From positions 1-38,398 of IMG/VR virus record IMGVR_UViG_3300034150_000057: a DNA stretch of 38,398 nt; one strand, 5' to 3'. The notes below the pieces were generated by a model, which was not told the origin of the DNA, searched no databases, and saw nothing but the letters and a program-made list of their open reading frames with translations. Below, piece after piece: positions 3,784-38,398 of the stretch; the first letter of the stretch is position 1; each line of letters starts with the position of its first letter. The position numbers and the translations under genes were made by a program. The stretch is from a virus.

Positions 3784-4223
3784 AGACCACAGTTCACAAC
3801 AAGATCGCGAAAACCCATGCGGGCTCCAAGAGTCTGCGTGACCAGCAATCCACATATGAGGGTGGCGCCGGCGCGTCAGGCCGCGGAGCCAAGCCCAGCG
3901 AGGCGCCGGCACACGTCGTCGTGGACCCGCGAACCTCGCCCATGCCAGGCGCAACGCGCTCCAACGGCGAGCCTGAGATCATCATCGTCCATTGCCGCAA
4001 CCTGCGAGTTGGGGATCGCGTTGTCAAATGGGGCGAGCCTGTCGAATATGGTCTCGTGACGTCAAACCTCGAGGGAACCATCTGCGTGATGTGGGACGAT
4101 GGTCAGCTCACCACTCAAACCTGGAGGCATTCGCGATACAACCTTCAGAAAGCCGTGCGCACCGTTGAGCTATGGGAGCGCGCCACCAAACCTGGCCGGC
4201 CGCCGAAGAGCATCACGGGATAA
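3780..4223 (+). CDS. Hypothetical protein (147 aa)
   Basis: ATGA-coupled start. It is the last gene of the first early operon and is followed by a 260-nt non-coding gap. The C-terminal half looks like a small beta-barrel (VGDRVVKWGEPVEYGLV...VMWDDGQ). Confidence 0.65.
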   Translation: MKTTVHNKIAKTHAGSKSLRDQQSTYEGGAGASGRGAKPSEAPAHVVVDPRTSPMPGATRSNGEPEIIIVHCRNLRVGDRVVKWGEPVEYGLVTSNLEGTICVMWDDGQLTTQTWRHSRYNLQKAVRTVELWERATKPGRPPKSITG

Positions 4224-4311
4224 TCTCATACCGCGACAGCCCAGGATGCCCCGGGCCGGCCATTTTCTCGAGGGTGGGTAAACACTCGACTTCGAGGTTT
4301 GGGCCGGCCAC

Positions 4312-4339
4312 GGGGCGTCCTGGACTCTCGTGGGGCGTC
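4312..4339 (+). repeat. Direct repeat of GGGGCGTC (4312-4319 and 4332-4339), 20 nt apart; candidate operator
   Basis: Seen as cacGGGGCGTCctgg and cgtGGGGCGTCacgg. The same octamer or its complement recurs at 7127-7133, 7136-7143, 7441-7448 and 7463-7469, and as ACGCCC abutting the -10 at 4428-4433. Confidence 0.4.
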
Positions 4340-4409
4340 ACGGCCTGGCCGGCGCCTGGCGGCCCGATCGGTTGGGAAGGCCTTGCCCTGAAAGTCTGAC
4401 CAAAAGTCC

Positions 4410-4439
4410 TATACGCGGCGTGGACCAACGCCCTATAAT
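4410..4439 (+). promoter_or_regulatory. Early promoter P2 (TATACG-N18-TATAAT, followed by CATC)
   Basis: The -10 is at 4434-4439 inside gccctataatcatc. A perfect UTR hairpin CCGCCC acct GGGCGG lies at 4449-4464. SD AAGGGGA at 4471-4477 sits 6 nt before the GTG at 4484. Confidence 0.55.
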
Positions 4440-4483
4440 CATCTTCTACCGCCCACCTGGGCGGGCAAGCAAGGGGAACCACC

Positions 4484-4888
4484 GTGACCAACGGACCTGA
4501 CTACGGCAAGCTGAAAATGGCTCGCCTGCTCGTTGAATTGGATGCGAGCCACACATACACCGTGCCGGCCGACATTCTCGCCGACGCCAAGCAGACCATC
4601 GCCTGGCAGACGAGCGTCGCGAAGACCGCTGAATGGCAGCGAAACCGCGCACTCGAGGAAACCCTCAAGCGTCAGGCCATTCTCGACGCTGACGTCGCGG
4701 TTACGAGTGACACCGCGATGTGCGAGGCTCGCGTCTTCGAGCGCTCATACTTCGACAGCCGCGGACATGCCTGCGGCAAGCGAGCCAAGTTCGTGCGAAC
4801 CTGGACCGACAATCAGAAGAACGTGCGGCAGTCACTCCTCTGCGGAACCCATCGTCAGGTCAAGGGCGAGTACGGCTGGCCTTTCTAA
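4484..4888 (+). CDS. Hypothetical protein (134 aa)
   Basis: GTG start behind the P2/SD cassette. Cys/His residues in the C-terminal half (CEA...HACG...CGTH) suggest possible metal binding. Confidence 0.65.
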   Translation: MTNGPDYGKLKMARLLVELDASHTYTVPADILADAKQTIAWQTSVAKTAEWQRNRALEETLKRQAILDADVAVTSDTAMCEARVFERSYFDSRGHACGKRAKFVRTWTDNQKNVRQSLLCGTHRQVKGEYGWPF

Positions 4889-4899
4889 GCGGAACCCAC

Positions 4900-4923
4900 G
4901 GCCGGCGAATTACCACGCCGGCC
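4900..4923 (+). other. Perfect 8-bp GC stem-loop (GGCCGGCG aattacca CGCCGGCC) between two early genes
   Basis: It starts 12 nt after the stop at 4886-4888 and has no U-tract. It is followed by SD AAGGGGA (4934-4940). It could be an attenuator, a processing site or an RNA-stability element. Confidence 0.4.
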
Positions 4924-4948
4924 ACCACACCTCAAGGGGAAATATCAA

Positions 4949-5707
4949 ATGAGCACCTCCGAAGACATGCTGCGCAAGGTCCAGGCGCTTCTCGCGAAGG
5001 CTGAGAGCACGGACAACGAGCACGAGTCTGAAGCATTCTTCAGCAAGGCTCGCGAGTTGATGCTGAACCACGCGATTGACGAGCAGATGCTCCGTCAGGC
5101 GAGCGCGGAGAAGCGGGCGAGTGAAGCCCCCATCATGGTCGAATACATGTTCTCGACGAGCGACTCGAACGCCGTCGGCAAGAAGATGCTGTTGAACATG
5201 ATCGCGCGAGCCAACCACGTGCGGATGATCCAGTATCAAAACCGCCGGAACTCAAACCTCCATCGGCCTGGCAATTCCGGCGTCGCGTCGCAGTGGTGCG
5301 CCCTCGTAGGGTTCAAGTCCGACATTGAGGTGGTGAAGATGCTCTACGTGAGCCTCCTCATCCAGGGCGCGCATTTCGGCCATCAGGCATTCGTCGCGAC
5401 CTACGGGCGAGGCTCGGCCGGCAAGAGCAAATTCCTCACGGGTTTCCTCGTGGGGTTCGGCCAGCGAGTTGGGCAGCGGTTCAACGAGAACAAGCTGGCC
5501 ATGCCGCAATCCTCCACGGCGCTGATCGTCATGCGAGACGCCGAGGTTGACAACGCATTGGGCGGCTTCTTCCCACACCTCGGCCGGGGCAAGCATTCCC
5601 GCTACGACGCACGAGGTGCCGCGGCCGGCCACATTGCCGGCAACCGTGCGGATATCGGATCCCCACAAGTCGGGGCCGGCCTTCGGCGAATTGGCAGCGG
5701 GCGATGA
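4949..5707 (+). CDS. DUF2786-like protein
   Basis: The N-terminus MLRKVQALLAKAESTDNEHESEAFFSKARELMLNHAI matches the DUF2786 signature I recognise (K-x-x-ALLAKAEST...EAEA...KAxELM). AAGGGGA SD 8 nt upstream. Confidence 0.7.
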   Translation: MSTSEDMLRKVQALLAKAESTDNEHESEAFFSKARELMLNHAIDEQMLRQASAEKRASEAPIMVEYMFSTSDSNAVGKKMLLNMIARANHVRMIQYQNRRNSNLHRPGNSGVASQWCALVGFKSDIEVVKMLYVSLLIQGAHFGHQAFVATYGRGSAGKSKFLTGFLVGFGQRVGQRFNENKLAMPQSSTALIVMRDAEVDNALGGFFPHLGRGKHSRYDARGAAAGHIAGNRADIGSPQVGAGLRRIGSGR

Positions 5708-6027
5708 ACGTCCACGTCGTGGTCTTCAGCGAGGATGGCGACACCAACGTCGCCGTCTTCGCTGAGCAGGCTGATGCCCGCGAATTTGCTCGCGGTCTTG
5801 AAGATCATGTGAGGTGGTATATCAACGAGCAGCCGGTAAACCAGCCAGGCGCGGCCACACCGCGCCAGGCCGACGAGCGGATCGAAATCGCGTATCGCGA
5901 CCTGCGATATGACCCGCCCAGGCACAAGCGCATCGTCTGTCGAAATCAGGCGCAATTCGAGCGGTGGCTGTATCTCCATGGAGAGAACGTCGAAGTCATC
6001 GCGACCAGGCAAGCGGAGGCGTCATGA
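5704..6027 (+). CDS. Hypothetical protein (107 aa)
   Basis: ATGA overlap with the upstream stop; no recognisable motif. Confidence 0.6.
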   Translation: MNVHVVVFSEDGDTNVAVFAEQADAREFARGLEDHVRWYINEQPVNQPGAATPRQADERIEIAYRDLRYDPPRHKRIVCRNQAQFERWLYLHGENVEVIATRQAEAS

Positions 6028-6101
6028 CCAAGTGTGGACGCGACGACGATCCGTCTCAACACGACGTATCACGGCCTACCCGTGAGAACGAAAATAGGGG
6101 G

Positions 6102-6130
6102 TGTACAAACCCGATCGCCCAGGGTATATT
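6102..6130 (+). promoter_or_regulatory. Early promoter P3 (TGTACA-N17-TATATT, followed by CATC)
   Basis: The -35 is at 6102-6107, preceded by GGGGG as in P1, and the -10 is at 6125-6130. UTR hairpin GGCCG accac CGGCC at 6142-6156. SD AAGGGGA at 6158-6164 sits 5 nt before the ATG at 6170. Confidence 0.55.
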
Positions 6131-6169
6131 CATCGTCAGCCGGCCGACCACCGGCCTAAGGGGAAGCAA

Positions 6170-7033
6170 ATGAGAGGGAACCCACTCTGCCCGATAAACC
6201 TCAAGCACGGGTATCTCAAAACCTGGGAACCAGGCACCATCGCAGCGTGGTGGTGCGGACACATGGACCACGGCGCAAATGGCCGCTTCTTCACAGATAG
6301 CGAAGCCCGTGGCGAAATCACTCTCAAGGAGTCAGACGTGGCAAAGATCTACCAGGCAACCGCGAAGGCCGTCATCGCCGGCACCGTCACCGAAGAGGTC
6401 GCGGTCAAGCAGCTGGCCAACCAGTTGCAAGTCTCGGCAGACGAGGCGCTTGAAGGGCTGCGGGCCGAGCTGGCCAGGCAGCGCACGAGCGCCGAGGCGA
6501 CGGCCGAGCAGAAGGAAGTCGTGGCCAAGCGGAAGGCCGCCCCGAAGGAGAAGGTCGCGAAAGGGCCGCGTGTCAAGCTCGAGCACGTCGAGCCTGAGGA
6601 ATTCGCAGCCGTCCGCGATCGCCTTGGCCTGTCCAACAAGCAGGTCGCAGACGCGCTGATCGACGTGGTCGGCGCCAAGCCTGGTGAGCCGCCGACGCTC
6701 TCGCGCGTCACGGAACTCACCCACTCGAAGGGTTCGAGCCGGCCGCTGTTCGTCAAGTACGAGACGGCCCTGGTGAAGTACGCCAAGACCCACGAGTCCG
6801 CCGCGTCGATCGCCGCGAAGGCGAAGGCCGCGAAGGAGAAGGCGGACGCAGCCGCAGCCAAGGCGAAGGCCGATGCCGCAGCCAAGGCAGCGAAGGCCAA
6901 CGGCAACGGCAAGCCTGCCGCCGATCCGGCGAGCAAGGCCCCGCGCCGCAAGCCTGCCGACGTCGGTGGAACCACGCCTGTTGGTGCGAATGGCGCGCCG
7001 GGTGCAGACGGGGCCGGCCAGAGCGCCGACTGA
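6170..7033 (+). CDS. Lys/Ala-repeat (histone H1-like tail) putative DNA-binding protein
   Basis: 287 aa from the SD-supported ATG at 6170 (track ORF starts at 6101). Central HTH-like segment LSNKQVADALIDV...LSRVTELTH. The C-terminal low-complexity stretch is AAKAKAAKEKADAAAAKAKADAAAKAAKANGNGKPAAD. Confidence 0.6.
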   Translation: MRGNPLCPINLKHGYLKTWEPGTIAAWWCGHMDHGANGRFFTDSEARGEITLKESDVAKIYQATAKAVIAGTVTEEVAVKQLANQLQVSADEALEGLRAELARQRTSAEATAEQKEVVAKRKAAPKEKVAKGPRVKLEHVEPEEFAAVRDRLGLSNKQVADALIDVVGAKPGEPPTLSRVTELTHSKGSSRPLFVKYETALVKYAKTHESAASIAAKAKAAKEKADAAAAKAKADAAAKAAKANGNGKPAADPASKAPRRKPADVGGTTPVGANGAPGADGAGQSAD

Positions 7034-7037
7034 CCAC

Positions 7038-7182
7038 GGGAGCCTACGGGCTCCCAGGCCGGCCAAGACCTATCCCCTTGGGTCTTGGCCAACTTGGGAG
7101 CCCGTCGGCCGACGTGGTGGATCCTGGACGCCCGTGGGGCGTCTGGAAAATAGGGCATTCCCTTTCCGAAGGGGATGCCCTA
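7038..7182 (+). other. Array of four GC-rich stem-loops in one intergenic region; the first is terminator-like and the last overlaps promoter P4
   Basis: GGGAGCC tacg GGCTCCC (7038-7055). GGCCAAGACC N10 GGTCTTGGCC (7061-7090). GACGCCC gtg GGGCGTC (7127-7143). TAGGGCATTCCC tttccgaa GGGGATGCCCTA (7151-7182). There is also the 12-nt palindrome CGTCGGCCGACG (7103-7114). Confidence 0.5.
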
Positions 7183-7186
7183 TATT
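7158..7186 (+). promoter_or_regulatory. Promoter P4 (TTCCCT-N17-TATATT, followed by CATC), embedded in a 12-bp hairpin
   Basis: The -35 is at 7158-7163 and the -10 at 7181-7186, inside gccctatattcatc. SD AAGGGGA at 7224-7230 sits 4 nt before the ATG at 7235. Confidence 0.5.
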
Positions 7187-7234
7187 CATCTTGTGCCGGG
7201 ATTTACCGGTGGGGAACCAGGCTAAGGGGATCGG

Positions 7235-7414: not shown

Positions 7415-7446
7415 CACTCGCCAGGCGTCGTCCAAATTTTGGGGCG

Positions 7447-7475
7447 TTCCCTTTTCGGAGGGGACGCCCTATATT
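7447..7475 (+). promoter_or_regulatory. Promoter P5 (TTCCCT-N17-TATATT, followed by CATT), embedded in a 10-bp hairpin
   Basis: Hairpin GGGCGTTCCC ttttcgga GGGGACGCCC (7442-7469), structurally homologous to the P4 hairpin. The -10 is at 7470-7475. It is followed by a ~150-nt leader before the SD at 7620-7626 and the ATG at 7633. Confidence 0.5.
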
Positions 7476-7632
7476 CATTCCCGGCGGGTTCCATGTGTCC
7501 GAACTCGCCAGGCTCGCCGACCGGATCCCACGTTGCGTTGTCCAGGCCTGACGTTCGGTTCGCTACCAAACCTCTCACGCCCGCTTCCCAACGACCCGGC
7601 CGGCGAGTCCGTTCTACCGAAGGGGATCAAGT

Positions 7633-13036: not shown

Positions 13037-13047
13037 ATTTCCGACGG

Positions 13048-13076
13048 TTCCCATATTGCCGGCGATCCGTTATATT
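13048..13076 (+). promoter_or_regulatory. Promoter P6 (TTCCCA-N17-TATATT, followed by CATT)
   Basis: The -35 is at 13048-13053 and the -10 at 13071-13076. A long UTR hairpin GCCGGCGCG...CGCGTCGGC lies at 13084-13119. SD AAGGGGA at 13128-13134 sits 3 nt before the GTG at 13138. Confidence 0.5.
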
Positions 13077-13137
13077 CATTCGTGCCGGCGCGACTCACGG
13101 GGTCGAGACCCGCGTCGGCAATTACCAAAGGGGAAAC

Positions 13138-14676: not shown

Positions 14677-17220
14677 GTGATCTGCGGCAACTGTTCCTGC
14701 CCTCTCAAGGGGCGGCCAACCCAGGGCGCAAATCGTGGTGTGCCTGAAGGATTGGCGGTCGTGTGCGAGTCCCCCACCGCGGGGGACTCAGCCGGCCTGG
14801 CGCCATACCAAGGGGCGGCCGGAGAAATTCTGCGCAAGACGTTGAGCCTGGCTGGGTTCGACGTCAATTCCATTTACTGGGCGAATGCCGTGGCACGCCT
14901 GGTAGATGCCGGCGCGAAACCGTCGATGGATTCGATCCGCGCCTGCCGCGAGCGCCTGCTCACCGAACTCGAGGCGGCTCGCCCAACGCGCGTGCTCGCT
15001 CTCGGCGGCCTGGCATGGGCGGCCGTGATGGGGTTCGATAGCTCGTCACCAATTACTCGCGAACGCGGTCGGATGGCCTGGCTCGAACTTCCCTCTGGAC
15101 GTGTCCCGGTACTTGCGACAATCAATCCAGCCGCATGCCTGGTCGACACGGATTGGTGGCGCGACCTGGCGTACGACGTCTCCAAGCTGGCTACTCAAAA
15201 GGAACCGCTTGCTCAGCCGAACCCCGAGGATTACTGGATCCCCCAGACGTTCGCAGGCCTGGCCGAAAATCTTCGAGAGCTGGCGCAATACGCCGCCGTC
15301 TCCATAGACCTCGAGACGCAGCCTAGCATTGAAGATCTTATAGCTCTTCGCGAGTCGCCGCGACCGAAGGCCTGGGCCAAGGATCATCCGCAAGCCGGCC
15401 TTGATCCGGCTCGCTCACGAATTCTCAGCCTGGGCATCGGTACTCGCGACGGGCCGATCGTCATCGTTGACGACATACTGCTCGCCCAGGAAAACGTGGT
15501 CGAACTCCTCGAGGAATTCATCTGGGATCCAGAGCATGTCGTCGTGATGCACAATGCGAAGTTCGACATGAAGTTCCTCGCGGCGCTATTCGGCCGGCAT
15601 GCCCCGCGCGATGTTCCGATCGCAGACACGATGCTCATGAACTGGTTGCTGGATGAGCGGCCGGTACGATCCATGTTCAAGGCTCACGGATTGAAGGACA
15701 TCTCGCGCTACTTGTACGACACGCCGAATTATGAATTCGACTGGCCGACGTTCTGGGCGCAGTCCGAGGATGATCGCGACTACGCGGCGCTCAACCGGTA
15801 CCACGCTACCGACCTTCGCCAGACGGCTCGCCTGTACTGGGATCGCCTGGCCGAACTCGAAGCCGTCGGACTTATGCAAGTCCACGACGAAATTCTCATT
15901 CCTGCCACACGTGCGCTCGCACAAGCCGAGTTCAACGGGATCGCCGTGAACCGCGAGTACCTGGCCGAGTATCGTCGTGGCCGCGAACGCCGTCTCACGC
16001 GGCGCCTGGCGGGTTTACGGGCTGCCGTGGGCGATCCTGAATTCAACCCACGCTCGGCGCAGCAGGTTGAAGTTCTCGTCTTCGACGAATATGGTTTCGA
16101 GGCAATCGAAAGCGCCGGCTACAAGACTTCGCTAGGCAAGGCCGGCGAGTCATTCCTCAAGCGGAATACTCGCCAGGAACTACTCGGCGCGCTAGCCGAC
16201 CGCCATGCAATTCGCCGGCCGCGTGAGGCTCGAGTCCTGCGATCCATCGTAGCCTGGCGCCACGACGAAAAGGCGAAGGCGACGTACGCCGACGGCCTAC
16301 TCGCAGCTTCCATCCAGGATGGCCGGATCAGGGCGTCGTTCAATCTCGCCGGCGCATCTACCGGCCGGCTCTCCAGCTCAGAGCCGAACCTCCAGAACAT
16401 TCCGAAGCGCGGTCCAACGGCCGAGGCGATTCGCCGCGCGTTCGTCGCGCCGCCTGGCATGCTGCTAATGGAAGCGGATTACTCGCAGCTCGAGCTTCGC
16501 GTCGCGGCTTTGCTATCCCGCGACGAGAGGTTTGCATCCGTCTACCGGGATGGCCGAGACATCCACCGCGAAGTCGCCGCCGTGATGTTCCACAAGCCGG
16601 CCGAAGATCTCACGTACATGGAGCGCTATCTCGCGAAGGCCGTGGACTTCGGCGCGATTTATGGCCGCGGCGGAAAGGCTATCAGCTTGGGCGCGGAGAT
16701 GGCCTACTACGAGAAATTCATGGGCGGCACGCGCTGGACGGCGGACGAAGCCCAGGACTTCGTGGATCGATTCCTCAACGGGTTCCCGGATCTACGCGCC
16801 TGGCTGACACGCCAAGGCTACGAAGCAATTCGCGATCGGGAGACCAAGACGATCTTCGGTCGCGTTCGCCGTTACCCGTTCATGACGCGGCAAGGCGTGC
16901 TCGAGGTTCGCCGCCAGGCGATGAACACACCGATCCAGTCGGTCGCGTCGGATATCTGCCTGTCTGCGTTCAGCCGGCTTGTCATGCGGCTTGACCCGGA
17001 TATCGCACGCCCGCTGTTCCCAATTCACGACTCGATCCTATTCGAGGTGGACGCGCACCACATTGAACCGGTCGCTAGAATTGTACGGGAGGAAATGCAA
17101 ATCAACTTGCCGAGCGTGGTACTCGAAGCGAACCGCGGATTGGATATCCCATTCACGGTGGACGTCAAGGCCGGGCCGACATGGGCAGACAGCGACCAGC
17201 ATGATGTGGAGATAACATGA
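14677..17220 (+). CDS. Family-4 UDG-like domain fused to family-A DNA polymerase (3'-5' exonuclease plus polymerase)
   Basis: UDG4-like N-terminus: CGNCSC, VVCESPTAGDSAGLAPYQGAAGEIL, LATINPAACL. Exo motifs: SIDLET, HNAKFDMKFL, YHATD. Pol motifs: A DYSQLELRV, B RYLAKAVDFGAIYG, C PIHDSILFEV. Confidence 0.9.
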   Translation: MICGNCSCPLKGRPTQGANRGVPEGLAVVCESPTAGDSAGLAPYQGAAGEILRKTLSLAGFDVNSIYWANAVARLVDAGAKPSMDSIRACRERLLTELEAARPTRVLALGGLAWAAVMGFDSSSPITRERGRMAWLELPSGRVPVLATINPAACLVDTDWWRDLAYDVSKLATQKEPLAQPNPEDYWIPQTFAGLAENLRELAQYAAVSIDLETQPSIEDLIALRESPRPKAWAKDHPQAGLDPARSRILSLGIGTRDGPIVIVDDILLAQENVVELLEEFIWDPEHVVVMHNAKFDMKFLAALFGRHAPRDVPIADTMLMNWLLDERPVRSMFKAHGLKDISRYLYDTPNYEFDWPTFWAQSEDDRDYAALNRYHATDLRQTARLYWDRLAELEAVGLMQVHDEILIPATRALAQAEFNGIAVNREYLAEYRRGRERRLTRRLAGLRAAVGDPEFNPRSAQQVEVLVFDEYGFEAIESAGYKTSLGKAGESFLKRNTRQELLGALADRHAIRRPREARVLRSIVAWRHDEKAKATYADGLLAASIQDGRIRASFNLAGASTGRLSSSEPNLQNIPKRGPTAEAIRRAFVAPPGMLLMEADYSQLELRVAALLSRDERFASVYRDGRDIHREVAAVMFHKPAEDLTYMERYLAKAVDFGAIYGRGGKAISLGAEMAYYEKFMGGTRWTADEAQDFVDRFLNGFPDLRAWLTRQGYEAIRDRETKTIFGRVRRYPFMTRQGVLEVRRQAMNTPIQSVASDICLSAFSRLVMRLDPDIARPLFPIHDSILFEVDAHHIEPVARIVREEMQINLPSVVLEANRGLDIPFTVDVKAGPTWADSDQHDVEIT

Positions 17221-31084: not shown

Positions 31085-32413
31085 TTACGCGATCAGGTTC
31101 GAGATTCGCTGGAAGTGGCCCGTGGTCACGTAGGGATCGGCATTGAATCCGATCTCCTCTTCACCACGGAAACCGGTGAGGTTCCGATCCCAGCGCTCGC
31201 CCGCCTCCTCCGAGACGTCCACTCGGTACTGGTCGCCAGTGAACAGCTCAGCGACCTTGTACGCGCCGACGACCAGATTGTCGGCCGGCATGTTCGGATC
31301 GCCGAGCGTTCGCAGACCCCAGATCCGCATGTCGAGGCCGGTCGCATCGACGCTCGTCGGCCCGCCCGACGGCGCGATGAAGAAGCCCGCTTCGTCGGTC
31401 CCCTGGGCGACCATCGTCCAGAAGTCCGCGGCATTCACGACGACGCCATCCGGATTGACGGCGCGATTTGCGATCGGCCCGGCGGCCGCCGCAACTGCGC
31501 TCGCTGCGGAACCAGCGAGCGTGGACGCCGACGGCGTGAACGTCGTGTGGAATTCGCCGGTGGTTCCGATCGACGTGAGGATGCCCTTCGGCTCGTTGGT
31601 GCCGGAACCACGCAGGACGTAGTACGACTCGCCGAGGCCGAATGCCCGGCCCAGGCGCGACCGGATGTTCTTCTCCGCCACTCCGCGCGAATTGCGCAGG
31701 AGCTGGTTGCCGACGTCGTAGATCTCGGCGAGCGTGTACATCGTCGCCGTGTACTTGTCCGTGAGGAGATCGCGCTTCGGCTTCAGCTCACCGGTTCCGA
31801 CGATCGTGGCTCGCGTCGGAGCGAGGCCCTCCGTCGGAATTTCGACGCCCGTGACGAATCCGACCGGCGTGACCGTGAGGAGCGTCCGGTACGGATTCAG
31901 CGGCACTGCGATCTCAATGAACGACTGGAGCACCGCGCTCGGAACGATGTTCCCGCCTGCGGCCGGCGTGTCTCCGAGCGTGGCCTTCGACTCCGGCGGG
32001 ACGTCGGCCCACACCGAGCCCATGCCCTCGAGCTGCGCCTTTCCCCAGGCATTCAGATCCGGGCTGACACGGCGGCTCTTGGACGCCCACAGCGAGTAGA
32101 AGAACCCGGCGCTCGCAGCCAGGTCGCCAGGCTCGATACCGGCCCCGATTGCTCGCGCCTTGCTCGGCGCTCGCACGCCGGCCTTCAGCTCGTTGATGTC
32201 CTTCAGCGCCTGGGCGTATTCCGCTTCGCGCGCCGCGGCCTTGCGCTCGTCCGCGATGGTGGCCATCTGCTGGCTGAGATCGCCGAGCTGCGACTTCAGC
32301 TCGACGAGATCACCATCGCCGGCCTTGATCTTCTCGGCGATATCCTCCATCGTCTTGAGGATGACGCCCTGCTGTTCGCTCAGGCCGTCGATATGCTGGC
32401 TGAGATCAGGCAT
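31085..32413 (-). CDS. Major capsid protein, HK97-like, with N-terminal delta (scaffolding) domain
   Basis: 442 aa. The first ~100 aa are coiled-coil (LSEQQGVILKTMEDIAEKIK...LKDINELKA), as in HK97 gp5. It follows a prohead protease. GGGAGGA SD. Confidence 0.85.
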   Translation of the reverse strand: MPDLSQHIDGLSEQQGVILKTMEDIAEKIKAGDGDLVELKSQLGDLSQQMATIADERKAAAREAEYAQALKDINELKAGVRAPSKARAIGAGIEPGDLAASAGFFYSLWASKSRRVSPDLNAWGKAQLEGMGSVWADVPPESKATLGDTPAAGGNIVPSAVLQSFIEIAVPLNPYRTLLTVTPVGFVTGVEIPTEGLAPTRATIVGTGELKPKRDLLTDKYTATMYTLAEIYDVGNQLLRNSRGVAEKNIRSRLGRAFGLGESYYVLRGSGTNEPKGILTSIGTTGEFHTTFTPSASTLAGSAASAVAAAAGPIANRAVNPDGVVVNAADFWTMVAQGTDEAGFFIAPSGGPTSVDATGLDMRIWGLRTLGDPNMPADNLVVGAYKVAELFTGDQYRVDVSEEAGERWDRNLTGFRGEEEIGFNADPYVTTGHFQRISNLIA

Positions 32414-32435: not shown

Positions 32436-33209
32436 TTACTGGCGAAGTTGTTCGGCCAGGCGGCTGGTCGCGTCCACGGACTGGACGAATTTCTGCCACC
32501 GGGCTTCGTCTTCGTTCGACAGCGCTCGCTCGTTCTTCGCCTTGACGCTCGCCAGCAGGGTTGCGTCTGGGTCAGCTCCGAGGTTGTGCAGTTCGGATAG
32601 TACCGTGCGGATACCGGCCAGTGCGATATCCTCCGGCATCTGATCCAATATGGCCTTGACCGGCTGGATGATGCTGAGCGTGTTTTGCGGCGACGTGCTC
32701 AGGGTCTGCATCATGTGCGCCCAGGCATCGATCCGCCGGCCCGCCTTCGCGACGCTGCCAGGCACCGGCTGCGACGAGCCGAAGATCTGGGCGCCTCGCG
32801 CACGCAGGCGAGCGACGAGTGCCAGGCGCTTCTCGCCGGCATCCAGCCAGAGGTCGGACCACCAGCCGAATTCATCCGGCTCGGCATCCAATTCGGACTT
32901 GCCCAGGAATACGCCGGTCAGCACGCCGGTTGGATCCCCATGCGCGGGGCTTGGCGGCCGGGCAGCATGGTGCCAGTCGACGGGACGCACTCGGTCCTGC
33001 CGCAATGCACGGTGCACGAAGGGATCAGTTCCCTCGTGGAAATACTCGCCGTCGACGTCGAGTCCCTTCGCGTACACGTTGCTCGGAACCGGCCCGCCGA
33101 ACGGGATCGACAGAATTCGCCCAGGCCGCTGGCCGGCGTAGAAACCCGCGAGTTCGTCGGGATCTGCGCCGAGGTTTGCCTTGACGTCAAACTGTGTCTT
33201 CAAGTCCAT
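32436..33209 (-). CDS. Prohead (capsid maturation) serine protease, HK97 gp4/S78-like
   Basis: The ATG at 33209 is preceded by GGAGGAG (5-nt spacer). Motifs DVDGEYFHEGTD, RPVDWHH and IFGSSQPVPGS fit the His/Ser protease pattern. It sits immediately upstream of the capsid gene. Confidence 0.6.
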   Translation of the reverse strand: MDLKTQFDVKANLGADPDELAGFYAGQRPGRILSIPFGGPVPSNVYAKGLDVDGEYFHEGTDPFVHRALRQDRVRPVDWHHAARPPSPAHGDPTGVLTGVFLGKSELDAEPDEFGWWSDLWLDAGEKRLALVARLRARGAQIFGSSQPVPGSVAKAGRRIDAWAHMMQTLSTSPQNTLSIIQPVKAILDQMPEDIALAGIRTVLSELHNLGADPDATLLASVKAKNERALSNEDEARWQKFVQSVDATSRLAEQLRQ

Positions 33210-33360
33210 CGGGCTCCTCCGTTTCCGCGGCACGCTCGAGCTGCATCCCGCAATGGCGGAGCGCCAGGTCCAGGCGCGCCGCGTCGTCTTCGGTGTGAGC
33301 CTTCGGTGGGAACGCCTCGTCAAGCGCTGCGATCACGTGCGCTGCGTCCGTCGTGTCCAT
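33187..33360 (-). CDS. Possible small acidic protein (57 aa)
   Basis: Own translation: MDTTDAAHVIAALDEAFPPKAHTEDDAARLDLALRHCGMQLERAAETEEPDGLEDTV. It overlaps the protease start by 23 nt. Below the track cutoff. Confidence 0.35.
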   Translation of the reverse strand: MDTTDAAHVIAALDEAFPPKAHTEDDAARLDLALRHCGMQLERAAETEEPDGLEDTV

Positions 33361-33363
33361 GGC

Positions 33364-33465
33364 CTAGCCTTTCTTCGCCGGCTTCGGTTTTGCTTTGGGC
33401 GGCGGCTTCGTGACAACCAGCTCGCCCTTATTCCAACCGAACCGCTTGGAACTTTCCTTCGTCAT
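33364..33465 (-). CDS. Possible small basic protein (33 aa)
   Basis: Own translation: MTKESSKRFGWNKGELVVTKPPPKAKPKPAKKG. The ATG overlaps the portal-fusion stop (ATGA at 33462-33465). Confidence 0.3.
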   Translation of the reverse strand: MTKESSKRFGWNKGELVVTKPPPKAKPKPAKKG

Positions 33466-36413
33466 AGCGTTGCCACGATGTGTCGAATTCCTTCCGCGTC
33501 AGTCACATCGGAGATGATCTTCAGCTTCGTGCCGCGCGGGAAGATCAGCTCCGCCTCGCGATCGTTGAAGAATTCCCAGGCGGCATGTGCGCCGGCCGGC
33601 ACCCGAATTTCCATGTACGCCGGGTTGTCCTTCTGGTCAGCGAATTCCTCGCCGGTCCGACGGCTCAGGGACGTGGACATGAACCCAGGATCGGTCACTT
33701 CTCCGCCCGTCAGATTGCCAGGCAGGTACGCGCTATCCAATCCGCGGAACACCTTGATCGGTTTGGGGATGGTATTCCGCACGATCGCCCCGTCCAACGC
33801 GGCGATCTGCACCTTGTGATCCTCGACCTGGTTTCGACGGATGGCATTGTTCAACGCTGTCGATGACTTGTAATACGACCCCAGTGCAGAGACTTCCTCG
33901 GGCGCCAGGCTCTCGCGCCAGGCTGCGAATTCCGCGTCACCCCACTTGACACCTTCCACGTGGCTGTCAAATTCGGTTGCCTCACTCGTCGCCTCGAGTT
34001 CCTCGCCAGCTTCGGCCAGGGCGTCGGGATCAATCTCATCCTCGCCGCTGCCGCCCTCGACCGGATAGATAGGCGAGCTGTCATCAATTAGCGGGATCCA
34101 ATCCAATGTGCCGTTCGGATGATCTTCGATCTCGGCCGCTTCGTCGACGGTGAAGACCTGGCCATTGCGCTCGGCGCACTCCTCATCAAAGTCGCCGTCG
34201 ATCGCTTCGACCTTCTCGACACCCAATTCGCGGTAGCTCTCGACTGCGGCGTCGTTGTACGCGAACGCCGATTCGGTCCGGGCGATTCGCTCCGCGCGCG
34301 ACTCGCCGAATTCAGCCAGGCCGCGCACGGCTTCGATCGCATCGTTGAGCGTGGCTTCTTCGTTCTTGAAGGTATATGCCAGCGCCTCGCGAACCGCATT
34401 CCGCGTGGTCTCATTGATGCCGGCGATGCGATTGCCGCCATGGTCCAGGACCTTCTCGGCCACGCGATCCTCGAGATGGATCGGCGCGGCCTTCACCGGC
34501 CCGGCCTTGGTCAGCACGTTCACCACCCCGCCGGATGCTTCCGTCGCGATCCGTTCGATGTGAGGTGTGAGCGCTGCCGCGAGCTGGGCATCCTGGCGCG
34601 ACGACCAATACGCACCGGTGTCACCAGGCTTGCTGCGGAGATGCCCAATTCCGACAGTGCGAAGCCGCGTGATGACCTGCTCCAATTGCTGTGCCAGCGC
34701 CCGATTTGTGCTCGCCTCGAGGGGCGTGAGCGTCTTCCGTTCGATGCGCGTTCGCAGACCCTTCAGCATGGACTGGCGCAGCTTTGCCTTCGCCTCGGCG
34801 TCAGGTTCGCCAGGCGCCTTGACCGTGACAGGCTGGAGCCCGGTGTGCTGGATCGGCGGAAGTCCAACAGCACCGAGCGAGCCAGCCGGGTCGAAGCCCG
34901 AGCGAATGAGGATACCAACCGCGTTGACCTGGTCGAGCAGCGGCGCCGGCGGAGCGCCTGGCACCGGCGGCGAATTTGCCTCCGGCTTCGGAGTGGGAGG
35001 CGTCTCGGGAAGAGCCTCGTGCGTGGCCGTCGATTCGGATTCGGGCGCAGCACCTTCGATGCCAGGCAGACCCTCGCCCGGGCCGGCCGGCATCGGCGCG
35101 ACCGGCAAGCTGACGGAGGCGACGTAAGCCTCGACCATCCCGCTCGGCAGCAGCACCAATTCGTCGAGCAGGCCGCCCTCCGGTGTTTTGATCTTGTCAC
35201 CGAATGGCTCGAGCCCGAGAATGGTCCGGCGCTCGGCCACCGTCAGCGGCTGGTCAAGAGCCTTCTGCGCCTTCTCATACCTGGGCGAGTCATCGTCAAA
35301 TTCCGGCTCGTCAATGATGAGTTCGACCGTGAGGTTGAATGCCTTGTACCGGTCGAGCAGCCCGAACTGAATCGTCTCGCGGATCGTCTCGAGCCGATCG
35401 TGCACCGCACCCTGCCAGAGCACGGCCTCATCATAGGACTTGGTTCCGCCGCTGTTCAGCCCGGCCGGCGCCTTCTGTCCGACCTGCGAACCTGGCACCC
35501 GCCAACCAGTGAGGATGTCGTCACGAGTCATTGCCATGAGTTCGACAAGCTCGAGATCGTCCATATTTGCCGTGGTCTGCATGAAGTCGATCGGACCGCG
35601 CGCAACCTGGAGTCGCTTCGCCGCCTGCGGTGACTCCACGATATTGCGCCAGTCATTCACGAATTGGGTCCACTGTTCCGGAGTGATCGTCGTCGCGTTG
35701 TCCTTCGGCGAGACGATGCCGCTCAGCCGGCCGCCGGCACTGAGCACACCCGAAACGTGAGCGTCGCCCAGGCGAGTGAGCGCCGCCTTCTCGCCCCATG
35801 CCTCGACCAGCCCGATACCGAAATGGCCGAAGTCAGGCGGATCCAGGTAGAACGAGAGAACCTCTTCCGCCTCGAGCGGTGTGCCGCCCTCGTCAATTGG
35901 ACGGTCCAACGACCAGCCGAGCAGGTTGCCGGCCTTGTCTTCGGCGGCGTACATCCGCGCCGGATTCAGATAGAGAATCGCCAGCGGAGTTCCGCCCAGT
36001 GCCTCGCTCTGGTCGAGGTACCAGAAGCCGGTACCGCACAGGCCGGCATGCCTGGAGGTGAGCGTCCACATTTCGCGACGCGCCATCTTGCGCTTGAGGT
36101 CTGTCGCGGCCTGCGGCTTCTCGAGCAAATCGCGAATGGCAACGAGTGCCGGTGGGCTGTCGTCGTTGATCAGCTCGCCGTCGTCAGTCTCGAGGTGCCA
36201 GGCCACACCGCCCGCCCGGCTAGATACCGCCTGCTCCGCCAGGCGAACCCAGGGATGCCGGCGATATAGCTCCTGAGCGGCAAGCGCCATCTTCTGGGGA
36301 GTGCGGCCGAGTGACCACATCGGCGTCGTGTACGCGAGCGCGGAAGCACCCGGCCCGGAGTAAGCACCGAAGCTGCCCGCCTTGGCGGAACGCCGGCCAA
36401 TGAGAATACTCAC
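33462..36413 (-). CDS. Portal protein fused to a MuF-like head morphogenesis domain and a C-terminal ADP-ribosyltransferase toxin domain
   Basis: 983 aa. Portal-like region aa ~30-430. Pro-rich linker aa 431-540. MuF/SPP1 gp7 signature GESRAERIARTESAFAYN...EDHPNGTLDW (aa ~545-775). Acidic linker. ART triad: KVFRG (R890), FMSTSL (S913-T-S915), REAELIFPRG (E953-x-E955). Confidence 0.85.
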   Translation of the reverse strand: MSILIGRRSAKAGSFGAYSGPGASALAYTTPMWSLGRTPQKMALAAQELYRRHPWVRLAEQAVSSRAGGVAWHLETDDGELINDDSPPALVAIRDLLEKPQAATDLKRKMARREMWTLTSRHAGLCGTGFWYLDQSEALGGTPLAILYLNPARMYAAEDKAGNLLGWSLDRPIDEGGTPLEAEEVLSFYLDPPDFGHFGIGLVEAWGEKAALTRLGDAHVSGVLSAGGRLSGIVSPKDNATTITPEQWTQFVNDWRNIVESPQAAKRLQVARGPIDFMQTTANMDDLELVELMAMTRDDILTGWRVPGSQVGQKAPAGLNSGGTKSYDEAVLWQGAVHDRLETIRETIQFGLLDRYKAFNLTVELIIDEPEFDDDSPRYEKAQKALDQPLTVAERRTILGLEPFGDKIKTPEGGLLDELVLLPSGMVEAYVASVSLPVAPMPAGPGEGLPGIEGAAPESESTATHEALPETPPTPKPEANSPPVPGAPPAPLLDQVNAVGILIRSGFDPAGSLGAVGLPPIQHTGLQPVTVKAPGEPDAEAKAKLRQSMLKGLRTRIERKTLTPLEASTNRALAQQLEQVITRLRTVGIGHLRSKPGDTGAYWSSRQDAQLAAALTPHIERIATEASGGVVNVLTKAGPVKAAPIHLEDRVAEKVLDHGGNRIAGINETTRNAVREALAYTFKNEEATLNDAIEAVRGLAEFGESRAERIARTESAFAYNDAAVESYRELGVEKVEAIDGDFDEECAERNGQVFTVDEAAEIEDHPNGTLDWIPLIDDSSPIYPVEGGSGEDEIDPDALAEAGEELEATSEATEFDSHVEGVKWGDAEFAAWRESLAPEEVSALGSYYKSSTALNNAIRRNQVEDHKVQIAALDGAIVRNTIPKPIKVFRGLDSAYLPGNLTGGEVTDPGFMSTSLSRRTGEEFADQKDNPAYMEIRVPAGAHAAWEFFNDREAELIFPRGTKLKIISDVTDAEGIRHIVATL

Positions 36414-36416
36414 TGC

Positions 36417-36587
36417 TCAACTCCCAGGCGTATCGTCAGGTGGACGGCGGTCACGTACAAACCACAGTGCGAGAAAAGCAAAAGCCGCGACGATCAGAGC
36501 GAGCGGCGGGTAGACCATCGCACCGCCCGTGACGGCGAGTACGAAGCCGGCAACGAGAAGAACATCGTCAGCCTCAAGCTTGCTCAC
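36417..36587 (-). CDS. Possible small membrane protein between terL and portal (56 aa)
   Basis: Own translation: VSKLEADDVLLVAGFVLAVTGGAMVYPPLALIVAAFAFLALWFVRDRRPPDDTPGS. The GTG overlaps the terL stop (GTGA). The stop lies 3 nt before the portal GTG. It fills the only gap in this operon. Confidence 0.45.
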   Translation of the reverse strand: MSKLEADDVLLVAGFVLAVTGGAMVYPPLALIVAAFAFLALWFVRDRRPPDDTPGS

Positions 36588-37984
36588 GCGACCATGCTGA
36601 AGCTGTCGCCTGGCGAGTCTCCGACCGATCCACCGAGCATTAGCTCGGTGAACGCCCAGGCCAGGGCGTCGAGCCGGCCAGGGCTGTCCCCAGACTCAGG
36701 CGTCCAGTGCGTCAATTCGTACTCCAGCTCAGGCATGGGCCGAACGTGTGAAATTCGATCTTGCTCGTACAGCATGGCGATCGGCTCGGCACGCGTTCGC
36801 TTCCCTCGAGATGCGGTGACGAGTTTGATCGGTCCTTGCCAGCCGATCATATCATCACCCCGGCGCGCGGCATTGATCGTGAGTCCAACCATCTCACCGC
36901 CGTTGTTCGATTCAGCCACGATCGAATCAGCACCGAAATCAGACGCTGCTTGCAGGGCGCGCTTTGCCCAGGCCGTCGGACCGACACGCGCCGACCGATC
37001 GTCCAATACGTATCCGCGACCGTCGTATGCCAGGCCGGCCACCACGATGCCGGCCTCGTCCGCCTGCTCGCCGCTGGTCGCATTTGGATCTACCGCGACG
37101 ACGATGCGCGCCAGGTCGGGAATGGTTTGTCCGCCCTTGATGATGAGTGGGGCCGGCCGATAGCGAATATCGTTCGTCGTCCACAATGCGCCAGGCGCGT
37201 CGAGAAGCAATTCCGCGAACAGCTCTTGACGGCCCAGGCGTGTACCCTCGTACGCCTCGAGGACATTCGCTCTGAATGTAGGGGCGAGGTTCTCCAGGTT
37301 GTCATAGCTTGATCCTCGCGTGACGGCCGTGCTCGCCAGCGTGGGCAGGCCAGGCGTGTCGGGCGTTCCAACGAGCAGGCGCACCGGGCGTGGCGTCGTG
37401 GTCATGATCGCCTGCGGTTCGGCGCCTAAGCGCAAACCCAACTTGAGGTTTGACCAGGTGGTTCCCACGGTGTCGCCGGCGTTCGCATCGATCCAGTACG
37501 CAGGCTCGTCACCCCAGGCTTTGTGATGCTGCGGACCACGCAGGCTCGCCGGCTTCTCGCTTGAGTAGACCTTTGCACGAGACTCGTTGGCCAGGAACAA
37601 TTCGCCCATGGACCGGTTCCACGCCGTGTCGCGCGCTCCGCCTCGCAACTCGTGTGGTGCGAACGCGGCGAGCAGGCCGGACTCGCCTTCCACCATCGTG
37701 TCGCGCCCATCTGCGAACGTCTGCGCGACCAACGCAATCCGGGATCCAGGTTCGTCGCGCATCCACTGCGCTACGGTCTCAGCCCCTGTTCGCGTCTTGC
37801 CCCATCCGCGGCCGGCCATGATGAGCCACGTGAACCAGCTCCCGCCAGGCGGCGCCTGGTCTTCACGACGCACGCGAGACCAGGATTTCTCGGCTGCCCG
37901 CTTTTGCTTACTCCGCAGGGAGATAGCCGCCAGGCGCAGGACTCGCTCCTGGTCGCGCGGCGAGAGGTCAGCTAGCTTGGGCAT
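36584..37984 (-). CDS. Terminase large subunit
   Basis: 466 aa. Walker A-like IMAGRGWGKTRTG. ATPase N-domain and a C-terminal nuclease-like region with acidic residues (VAVDPN...ESNNGGEM). Located upstream of the portal. Confidence 0.85.
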   Translation of the reverse strand: MPKLADLSPRDQERVLRLAAISLRSKQKRAAEKSWSRVRREDQAPPGGSWFTWLIMAGRGWGKTRTGAETVAQWMRDEPGSRIALVAQTFADGRDTMVEGESGLLAAFAPHELRGGARDTAWNRSMGELFLANESRAKVYSSEKPASLRGPQHHKAWGDEPAYWIDANAGDTVGTTWSNLKLGLRLGAEPQAIMTTTPRPVRLLVGTPDTPGLPTLASTAVTRGSSYDNLENLAPTFRANVLEAYEGTRLGRQELFAELLLDAPGALWTTNDIRYRPAPLIIKGGQTIPDLARIVVAVDPNATSGEQADEAGIVVAGLAYDGRGYVLDDRSARVGPTAWAKRALQAASDFGADSIVAESNNGGEMVGLTINAARRGDDMIGWQGPIKLVTASRGKRTRAEPIAMLYEQDRISHVRPMPELEYELTHWTPESGDSPGRLDALAWAFTELMLGGSVGDSPGDSFSMVA

Positions 37985-38277
37985 TAGCTGCCGGCCACTC
38001 GTAACGCTCGAATCCGCTCTCGGAATATGGGATCATCCTCGCCGTAGCCCTGCTCAGGCGTGACCTCCAGGCTGACCGGCGGCTGGCCGTAGCAGAACAA
38101 TGCGATGTTCGCCCCATTCGCAATCTGCTCGCGCTCTTCGGGCGTAGGCTCCCAGACTGATTTGACCCAGCGAGGTTCGTCCAGATCCACCTCGACGTGG
38201 AGATCGCGAACCTCGTACTCCTGGCCGGCCGGTGCGGTGAACACCTTGTTGGACCGCTCAGTACGTACCGGTCTCAT
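37984..38277 (-). CDS. Hypothetical protein between terS and terL (97 aa)
   Basis: The ATG at 38277 overlaps the terS stop (ATGA). The stop TAA overlaps the terL ATG (TAATG). No recognisable motif. Confidence 0.55.
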   Translation of the reverse strand: MRPVRTERSNKVFTAPAGQEYEVRDLHVEVDLDEPRWVKSVWEPTPEEREQIANGANIALFCYGQPPVSLEVTPEQGYGEDDPIFRERIRALRVAGS

Positions 38278-38398
38278 TCGCCGGACTCGAGCAATAGCTC
38301 GGCCTCGCTCAGCAATTGATCGACGTCCATCCCAGCCTCGCCGTCCGCGACAATGCGCTTTGCCAGGGCCTTGATATCAACAGTCACGTCCACTCGGT
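38272..38398. repeat. Second copy of the 127-bp terminal overlap; it duplicates the 3' end of terS
   Basis: Identical to 1-127 by direct comparison. Confidence 0.95.

Follow-up and report, generated by a model that had tools for sequence, protein, structure and literature searches.

What is an ADP-ribosyltransferase (ART) domain of the C3/Vip2 toxin type doing at the end of a phage portal protein? The question is raised by IMG/VR virus record IMGVR_UViG_3300034150_000057, which we analysed over its full 38,398 nucleotides (the window, whose numbering is used throughout). One open reading frame (ORF) of 983 amino acids (aa), on the minus strand at 33462-36413, had been described in an earlier, sequence-only reading as a fusion of a portal, a MuF-like domain and an ART, and profile searches now bear out each of these modules (PF04860, PHROG MuF families and PF03496, respectively). 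Portals are dodecamers with their C termini facing the capsid interior, and because of this the fusion would constitute a built-in capsid-targeting device. We give an even chance to the proposal that the MuF-ART part is loaded into heads on the portal, released by a prohead protease, ejected, and then ADP-ribosylates a host protein.

The window carries an exact direct terminal repeat of 127 nucleotides (nt; positions 1-127 are identical to 38272-38398). It is therefore a circularly closed assembly representing a complete phage genome of 38,271 bp.

Architecture of the fusion protein

The fusion ORF and its parts are as follows.

33462..36413, minus strand: portal-MuF-ART fusion ORF, 983 aa, 106 kDa, GTG start, TGA stop
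35199..36326, minus strand: portal core, HK97-type Phage_portal, aa ~30-405 (PF04860, phrog_2662)
34791..35198, minus strand: variable Pro/Ala/Glu-rich linker, aa 406-541 (family alignment occupancy 0.15-0.6)
34812..34937, minus strand: conserved 42-aa module within the linker, aa 493-534, LLDQVNAVGILIRSGFDPAGSLGAVGLPPIQHTG (tblastn)
34491..34787, minus strand: MuF N-terminal helical region, aa 543-641 (10.7 kDa, pI 11.2)
34089..34490, minus strand: MuF core, aa 642-775, with RAERIARTE (706-714) and HPNG (765-768)
33969..34088, minus strand: acidic linker, aa 776-815, free of Lys-Ala (KA) motifs
33465..33968, minus strand: C3/Vip2-type ART domain, aa 816-983 (PF03496, PDB sequence matches)
33744..33746, minus strand: Arg890 in KVFRG, the R of the R-S-E triad, aligning with YRG of Lmo0066 and Plx2A
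33669..33677, minus strand: Ser913-Thr914-Ser915, the STS motif
33549..33557, minus strand: Glu953-Ala-Glu955, the ExE motif of the ARTT loop

Translation would begin at a GTG preceded, 7 nt upstream, by a GGGAG ribosome-binding site (Shine-Dalgarno sequence). The GC content at third codon positions (GC3) is ~0.75 throughout the ORF, including all domain boundaries, both linkers and the C-terminal module.

The N-terminal module is recognised as a portal by Phage_portal, PF04860 (aa 94-399, E 2.6e-21, 76.6 bits against a gathering cut-off of 39.1), and by the PHROG portal family phrog_2662 (E 3e-45). Its core is aligned at an occupancy of ~1.0 across a 120-member family, and the gene lies in a portal position, with the large terminase gene on one side and the protease and capsid genes on the other. 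The region that follows had been delimited as a Pro-rich linker at aa 431-540. It is indeed a variable linker, but its bounds are better placed at aa ~405-545, and it contains the conserved module of aa 493-534. This module matches the C termini of standalone portals in Arthrobacter phages Hirko, Ottawa and Kharcho and in Rhodococcus phage Mbo4, and is present in L007, a 33-kb contig (IMG/VR 3300037071) that is the closest ART-bearing relative of the query; within the portal-MuF family it is found in only ~15% of members. When the full fusion gene was compared with 50,697 phage records by near-identity and protein searches, no close relative was recovered and the 42-aa module was the sole match.

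We consider the MuF assignment secure because three lines of evidence agree. PHROG head-morphogenesis and minor-head families match the query (E 1e-14 to 2e-9), PF04233 is precomputed for most of the aligned family members, and a family hidden Markov model (HMM) built on aa 546-775 finds standalone MuF-ART proteins (E 1e-47 to 1e-10), with R706, E708, R712, T713, E714, H765 and P766 of the RAERIARTE and HPNG blocks invariant in the family. The N-terminal helical region is covered by the same HMM, and the standalone MuF-ART proteins match there too. Fusion to the portal also agrees with the gene context described for MuF, which is a position directly after the portal gene or within the same ORF (PMC5576092).

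The C-terminal tail had been proposed to be an ART, with a profile match to that family as the check. ADPrib_exo_Tox (PF03496; cut-off 23.4 bits) matches aa 823-971 of the full protein with E 3.9e-21 and the tail scanned alone with 83.5 bits and E 1.6e-23. The domain also finds ARTs of solved structure by sequence, namely Lmo0066 (1e-8), Plx2A, C3larvin, CdtA and C3. In phmmer alignments to Lmo0066 (PDB 8za7), Plx2A and C3larvin, the query triad stands opposite YRG, STT/STS and ExE/QxE, so that Arg890, S913-T-S915 and E953-x-E955 are confirmed as first numbered, down to their nucleotide coordinates. The helix of the NAD site, Y-x(6-7)-N-x(2-3)-R, is also present (ALGSYYKSSTALNNAIRR). From this homology to solved structures the domain would be expected to have the ART fold. 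It is probably an R-S-E mono-ADP-ribosyltransferase with intact catalytic motifs, and probably arginine-specific, because arginine-modifying ARTs typically have ExE and not QxE.

The ART is remote from its homologues. A word-indexed homology search with the domain alone returned zero matches, and an exhaustive HMMER search found 1,726 relatives, the best at 30-45% identity, many of which are MuF-ART proteins. The top-scoring homologues (P0121-P0127) are very large, at 2,000-4,000 aa, and contain 5-9 ART-like stretches in tandem. Among the 50,697 isolated-phage records, 30 match the ART at 25-34% identity, and in all 30 the gene is annotated as a MuF-like fusion, a minor capsid protein or a VIP2-like toxin, never as a portal, in agreement with the earlier statement that MuF-ART fusions are annotated in actinobacteriophages.

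Authenticity and distribution of the fusion

That the ORF is an assembly chimera, or conceals a frameshift or stop, might be suspected from its metagenomic origin and from the division of the L007 counterpart into two ORFs. However, the same ORF is uninterrupted in four datasets produced with differing assemblers (Logan, ENA, IMG/VR and JGI). Gene calls on a Logan contig of SRR10965835 and on L002, an ENA k141 (MEGAHIT-style) contig, give exactly the same 983-aa protein; over 7.9 kb, L002 departs from the window at 44 positions, with zero differences in the fusion gene. Slightly diverged copies are present in IMG/VR 3300011423 (L006) and JGI Ga0190266 (L033), which cover 2,355 and 1,080 nt of the gene and between them include all three modules and both linkers. 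Relative to the query gene they show 61 synonymous and 2 non-synonymous differences, V863A and A942S, with no indel and no stop. Thus, the whole fusion ORF is under purifying selection. The agreement of four assemblies from different pipelines, together with the substitution pattern (63 substitutions and zero indels across modules and linkers), makes a chimera very unlikely; the continuity of GC3 over the boundaries and the occurrence of the portal-MuF junction in many other proteins also speak against it. The fusion is therefore not a product of assembly, a point on which the sequence-only reading had asked for read-level support.

Elsewhere in the comparison with the ENA contig, 36 of the 44 single-nucleotide differences cluster at 37441-38260, in a 97-aa ORF and in codons 1-182 of the large terminase gene (terL), and the stretch from 33.2 to 37.4 kb has none. 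The clustering indicates that recombination affected a local patch and that the divergence is not uniform.

The same strain comparison bears on whether the ART might be catalytically inactive, a vestige retained as a structural appendage. The modest identity to its nearest ART relatives would be in keeping with such decay, but the R, STS and ExE residues are intact and aligned with catalytic residues of solved ARTs, the NAD-site helix is present and the triad is conserved in L007/P0173. Moreover, the ART region has 15 synonymous and 2 non-synonymous strain differences, neither of the latter at a catalytic residue. We therefore regard a dead ART as highly improbable.

The portal-MuF junction is widespread, being found in >190 metagenomic proteins (E<=1e-5, 37-59% identity), and portal and MuF share one chain in all 120 matches listed. 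Among these 120 nearest relatives listed, the ART is present in the query only. Fifty of the other 119 have <40 aa after MuF, and ~40% end a few residues past HPNG...W.P; the remaining 69 have tails of 40-170 aa, either Pro/Val repeats or short unique stretches, in which no enzyme domain is recognisable. In several ART-less relatives (P0005, P0003, P0081 and others) the tail consists of 80-170 aa of Pro/Val repeats of a 'VNV' type that end in a conserved RDxxGRxxG motif, with a P-x-K-A site ahead of the tail. Because the alternative tails are Pro/Val repeats and not enzyme domains, we see no toxin-cassette polymorphism in the portal-MuF family.

Portal-ART fusions do occur elsewhere, in four of 64 ART cluster representatives of 480-1,250 aa. 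P0253 (1,194 aa) combines a PF04860 portal with MuF and ART, P0249 and one other protein combine Portal_Mu (with MuF) and ART, and P0145 joins a lambda-type portal to an ART, so that the four span three portal Pfam families. The DNA loci of P0253 and P0249 were not found in IMG/VR, and a metagenome scan for more ART-bearing relatives returned only the same phage.

L007 has the same modules as the query in the same order. Its portal, including the 42-aa module, is 39% identical to query aa 17-628, and its MuF core, linker and ART are 36% identical to query aa 645-969. Its coding sequence is divided between two ORFs (4190-5992 and 5989-7029) in different frames, with a GTGA stop/start overlap. 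The division falls at the equivalent of query K641/A642, where the first ORF ends ...EGKS* and the second starts MTLGVGLPDRV, compared with A642-PIHLEDRV in the query. Taken with the other portal-ART fusions, L007 leads us to conclude that the portal-MuF-ART order is old in this branch and has arisen independently elsewhere, while still being rare. The triple fusion had been called unusual, and this is correct for the nearest relatives (1 of 120) and for the phage records, in which zero portal genes match the ART; it is qualified by P0253, P0249, P0145 and L007 and by fusions described in published surveys.

The relatives place the phage far from cultured ones. Those sourced from NCBI are metagenome assemblies, and those from GTDB are on short contigs of metagenome-assembled genomes (MAGs) from eight different lineages of many phyla; all relatives are on MAG or viral contigs only. 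The capsid protein is at most 25% identical, and the family-A DNA polymerase (PolA) at most 30% identical, to isolates. The setting of the phage looks like soil or sediment.

Candidate processing sites and a fold-recognised protease

If the portal carries the ART into the head, how could it be let go? The features that bear on this question are the following.

34785..34790, minus strand: K542-A543, candidate prohead-protease site at the linker/MuF boundary (KA in 90/120; P at -2, A/G at -1)
34488..34493, minus strand: K641-A642, candidate prohead-protease site (KA in 113/120; P at -2 in 61%)
32436..33209, minus strand: divergent HK97-type prohead serine protease, assigned by predicted fold, 257 aa with a C-terminal helical tail
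31085..32413, minus strand: major capsid protein, HK97-fold, with an N-terminal coiled-coil delta region (PF05065, E 2.1e-21)

KA conservation was scored on the 120-member portal-MuF alignment. In addition to the two sites above, KA recurs in the N-terminal region at aa 11-16, where two neighbouring columns have it in 70 and 38 of 120 members and the query has it at aa 11-12. It also recurs within 25 aa after MuF in 71 of the 82 tailed relatives, against ~20% expected (p = 6e-38). A common context, P at -2 and G/A at -1 in otherwise variable Pro-rich sequence, marks the four boundary sites, and two intradomain KA columns (209 and 384) lie in unrelated, structured contexts. K641-A642 is invariant in alignment A4, and it is here that the ORF boundary of L007 falls.

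The same motif appears in other proteins of the head module. An alignment of 12 capsid proteins of the clade has a conserved P-S-K85-A86 at the end of the coiled-coil N-terminal (delta) region and, further on, a conserved S-K143-A144-T-L-G...G-G-x-x-x-P, which matches ...N-K103|S104-L-G-S-D-A-D-S-A-G-S-L-I-Q-P of HK97 gp5 within one residue; K103|S104 is the scissile bond in HK97. BLAST and hhalign against gp5 aligned only the downstream core, and the offset predicts the same position within about two residues. In the family of the 257-aa protein, P-x-K-A is found at ~aa 10 and ~aa 185 (55/58 each) and KA in a disordered linker (49/58). We infer from these positions that the P-x-K-A sites are protease cleavage sites.

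Searches of Pfam, PHROG and PDB sequences found no match for the 257-aa gene, and no Pfam protease family was precomputed for the 120 listed of its 200+ homologues. An alignment-based AlphaFold2 (AF2) model reached a predicted local distance difference test score (pLDDT) of 81, and Foldseek with this model against BFVD gave 72 matches at E<=1e-3, of which the top was 'Prohead protease' (1.2e-10), followed by COG3740 head-maturation proteases; against the PDB it gave weak matches to herpesvirus assemblin (E 0.2-1.5). H81 and S145 are invariant in 58 homologues and would form the catalytic pair. The gene lies downstream of portal-MuF in >20 related loci and also in L007. By its modelled fold alone, then, it is an HK97-type prohead protease, and its presence means that proteolytic maturation inside the prohead would be available to the phage. 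Because prohead proteases can escape sequence profiles in this way, reports of protease-less portal-MuF phages (for example, Microbacterium cluster EA) may need re-checking at the level of fold.

The sequence-only reading had suggested that both flexible linkers could be prohead-protease sites. The protease gene and the candidate P-x-K-A at 542-543 support this for the first linker, but the acidic linker lacks the motif, and there is no KA between MuF and ART in either the query or L007. The ART is therefore predicted to stay attached to the MuF core.

From these elements we can outline how the fusion might work. The portal fusion would place ~12 MuF-ART copies within every prohead. The HK97-type protease would cut P-x-K-A at aa 11-12, 542-543 and 641-642, leaving a ~57-kDa portal (aa 12-542) in the vertex, yielding a basic 99-aa piece (aa 543-641) and freeing a MuF-core-ART cargo of 342 aa and 37 kDa (aa 642-983). 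The cargo could then leave the head along with the DNA, by way of the portal and tail channel, and the ejected ART would modify a host protein by ADP-ribosylation at the onset of infection, like T4 Alt. Its purpose might be host takeover or the countering of defence, neither of which is favoured by the data.

Several points weigh against this proposal. Cleavage, ejection, enzymatic activity and target are all steps that we infer. KA conservation could arise from structure or from another binding partner rather than from a scissile bond, and the register of the comparison with HK97 is uncertain by one residue, the N-arm itself being unaligned by BLAST and hhalign. Left uncleaved, twelve tethered extensions of 48 kDa would be unable to get out of the capsid. 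The division of L007 into two ORFs falls within the MuF N-terminal region and could reflect gene fission, a programmed frameshift, or an assembly or sequencing error. At the level of the domains, the query's own matches to PF04233 (aa 694-767, E 8.9e-6, 26.9 bits versus 29.6) and TIGR01641 (E 3.6e-8, 33.8 versus 39.65) fall below cut-off, a single-sequence AF2 model of the ART (aa 800-983) had a pLDDT of 38 and was unusable, and arginine specificity is deduced from ExE only by analogy with other ARTs.

In an alternative explanation, the MuF-ART stays tethered to the portal permanently. It could then act only in the producer cell, as protein left unassembled late in infection, or on targets at the portal vertex (terminase, packaged DNA or head proteins, for example), or serve mainly as an internal plug or holder of the DNA end like SPP1 gp7, a MuF protein that, according to work cited in PMC5576092, binds the portal and is required for efficient infection. 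Everything is encoded in one ORF, with no in-frame ATG or GTG preceded by a Shine-Dalgarno sequence at aa 400-830 from which a separate MuF-ART product could start, and the acidic linker has no KA motif. It has been suggested that head-associated ARTs might counter immunity directed against the packaging apparatus (PMC9503650), and portal-MuF fusions of isolated phages were reported without a protease gene (PMC7302621). However, a prohead protease gene is present here and is co-conserved with the fusion, the P-x-K-A sites lie exactly at the module boundaries, and the MuF-core-ART of L007 is a separate polypeptide from the 641 site onward. For an enzyme that acted only late and in the cytoplasm, fusion to a structural protein would be superfluous. 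We judge permanent tethering unlikely, though deserving of serious consideration.

Protease-mediated release can be extended, more tentatively, to the whole clade. It is possible, although we would not rate it as probable, that these uncultured phages of ~35-42 kb use the portal to load cargo stoichiometrically, with C-terminal extensions (MuF, plus Pro/Val tails or an ART) brought into each head in 12 copies by covalent fusion and cut free by a divergent HK97-type protease at a clade-specific P-x-K|A. The ART branch would have lost the post-MuF site so that the MuF core and ART travel together, the 33-aa peptide encoded after the fusion would be a partner of the ART (such as a chaperone or an inhibitor acting in the producer cell), and L007 would be the gene-fission equivalent.

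A fusion of this kind fixes both the number of copies (12 per particle) and their place, which is the inner mouth of the exit channel, and the combination of the protease and the P-x-K-A motif yields a precise prediction of the ejected fragment that mass spectrometry can test. It also means that virion-associated ARTs of the Alt/VIP2 type reach into a large clade of uncultured soil or sediment phages. The practical value is limited for now because phage and host are uncultured.

Neighbouring genes and known systems

On the minus strand the order of genes is the 97-aa ORF, terL, a 56-aa ORF, the fusion, ORFs of 33, 57 and 257 aa, the major capsid protein, two glycosyltransferases and head-tail and tail genes. 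Those not already given are listed here with the polymerase of the plus strand.

36584..37984, minus strand: large terminase (Terminase_6N + Terminase_6C), upstream of the fusion gene
36417-36587, minus strand: 56-aa ORF that separates terL from the portal gene; hydrophobic, predicted membrane-like
33364..33465, minus strand: basic 33-aa mini-ORF whose ATG overlaps the fusion TGA (ATGA)
33187..33360, minus strand: acidic 57-aa ORF, pI 4.2, between the mini-ORF and the protease, with no counterpart in ART-less L004
30375-31010 and 28869-30065, minus strand: two glycosyltransferases (GT2, GT4-like), directly downstream of the major capsid gene
14677-17220, plus strand: PolA, 847 aa, with an N-terminal uracil-DNA-glycosylase (UDG)-superfamily domain and a 3'-5' exonuclease in one ORF

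The mini-ORF was called as a gene. Its product contains the motif F-x-W-x-x-G-[DE]-[LI]-V-V (KRFGWNKGELVV), which recurs (EKFVWRPGDIVV) in a 52-aa ORF of L007 (7026-7184, plus strand) that overlaps the end of the L007 ART gene in the same arrangement. In a six-frame scan the motif was found in ART-bearing loci only, representing two ART-bearing lineages, and was absent from ART-less loci; ART-less L004 has an unrelated 39-aa ORF at this position. The peptide may be a partner of the ART or an immunity peptide, a lead that comes from two lineages.

An immunity gene is what would be expected if the fusion were a MuF polymorphic toxin, carried by a temperate phage as cargo against non-immune neighbours, with the 33-aa or the 57-aa ORF perhaps conferring immunity. 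Such toxins were defined by Jamet et al. 2017, and 14% of them are ARTs (PMC5576092). Bxa, an ART toxin of a Bacteroides stercoris prophage with adjacent immunity genes, for which antibacterial ADP-ribosylation was shown experimentally (PMC11699363), offers a precedent. The query has the MuF plus C-terminal ART layout, and in both ART-bearing lineages, but not in ART-less loci, a mini-ORF is coupled to the ART stop codon. Nevertheless, we consider this explanation improbable. The ORFs that we scanned, in a genome where many small ORFs carry no annotation, include no integrase, repressor, known immunity family, macro domain or ADP-ribosylhydrolase, and the phage has a replication module of its own that includes PolA. 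Alternative toxins at the same position, the other hallmark of the class, are not seen in the 119 close relatives, whose tails are Pro/Val repeats. A basic peptide of 33 aa is atypical as an immunity protein, and its co-occurrence with the ART comes from only two lineages. Bxa itself has an N-terminal phage-associated trafficking domain, no portal fusion and two immunity proteins (Bsi and the hydrolase BAH).

L004 has a similar hydrophobic ORF, of 64 aa, between terL and the portal gene, and a Methyltransf_21 gene where the query has glycosyltransferases; the position of the latter downstream of the capsid gene suggests glycosylation of virion proteins. The plus-strand replication module comprises DnaB/primase-like, SNF2 helicase, PD-(D/E)XK nuclease, AAA_24 and UDG-PolA proteins, and the genome also encodes a dCMP deaminase but no tRNAs. 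In intergenic regions of the early/replication module, a 37-nt element (GGGCATTCCCTTTCCGAAGGGGATGCCCTATATTCAT; 7153-7189, 7442-7478 and 13043-13079) is repeated. It is made up of a GC stem-loop and, after it, TATATTCAT, and resembles a terminator/promoter unit.

How does the proposed protease-released, ejected MuF-ART compare with known systems? By sequence its catalytic domain is similar over its whole length to the C3-like ARTs (Lmo0066, 8za7; Plx2A, 5urp; C3larvin, 4tr5; CdtA; C3bot/C3stau; iota Ia; Vip2), with R, STS and (E/Q)xE aligned, although at E-values of only 1e-8 to 1e-3. C3-like ARTs are secreted bacterial exotoxins that act on eukaryotic actin or Rho. The query has ExE, as in the actin- and arginine-modifying group, whereas C3 enzymes and Plx2A have QxE; the literature on Lmo0066 was uninformative as to its target.

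Among phage proteins, the order MuF followed by a C-terminal ADPrib_exo_Tox is shared with actinobacteriophage MuF-ART proteins (Microbacterium phage Percival gp4, cluster EJ and Gordonia phages) and with the Enterococcus EFV toxin. The actinobacteriophage proteins are likewise encoded in the head-morphogenesis module and are predicted virion components (PMC7302621, PMC5576092), but their portal is a separate gene. Conversely, the portal-MuF fusions of the uncultured clade and of viable, isolated Microbacterium phages of EA3/EA5/EA8 and EB (Jacobs-Sera et al. 2020, PMC7302621) have an N-terminal portal and a C-terminal MuF in one ORF but end at MuF or in Pro/Val-rich tails of 80-170 aa, with no enzyme. 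The same study reports MuF-VIP2 fusions in Microbacterium EH and EJ, but not together with portal-MuF.

Iyer et al. 2017 (PMC5512222) described effectors joined to MuF and to portal domains and took this to imply packaging and injection. Their surveys of polyvalent proteins (2017 and 2022) include PBECR, 2H, InPase, Nudix and Alt/VIP2 ART domains fused to MuF and/or portal, the ARTs being given as fused to MuF and possibly to portal or head proteins (PMC5512222, PMC9503650), and injection has been predicted for MuF- and portal-fused effectors (PMC5512222, PMC9503650, PMC5576092). These surveys are computational and do not include processing sites, and the portals of the other triple fusions come from unrelated lineages.

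A parallel for the proposed function is T4 Alt, present at 40 copies per head, which is trimmed by the prohead protease, ejected and modifies host RNA polymerase (PMC9026906, PMC5512222). Alt is likewise an R-S-ExE mono-ART, and it is packaged in the head and ejected as we propose for the query; no sequence relationship between the two was shown beyond the ART superfamily. Alt is a free internal protein with a short capsid-targeting sequence, the role that in the query would fall to the portal fusion. The T4 protease gp21 cuts after Glu (L/I-x-E), unlike the candidate P-x-K-A sites and the protease that is HK97-type by fold. The query fusion may thus act in the manner of Alt while lying outside its family.

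In summary, the papers of Iyer, Jamet and Jacobs-Sera had already established the concept, so that the query is a concrete triple-fusion member of it from a new uncultured lineage. What is added here is a prohead protease recognised by predicted fold only, a recurrent P-x-K-A motif and a predicted 37-kDa cargo.

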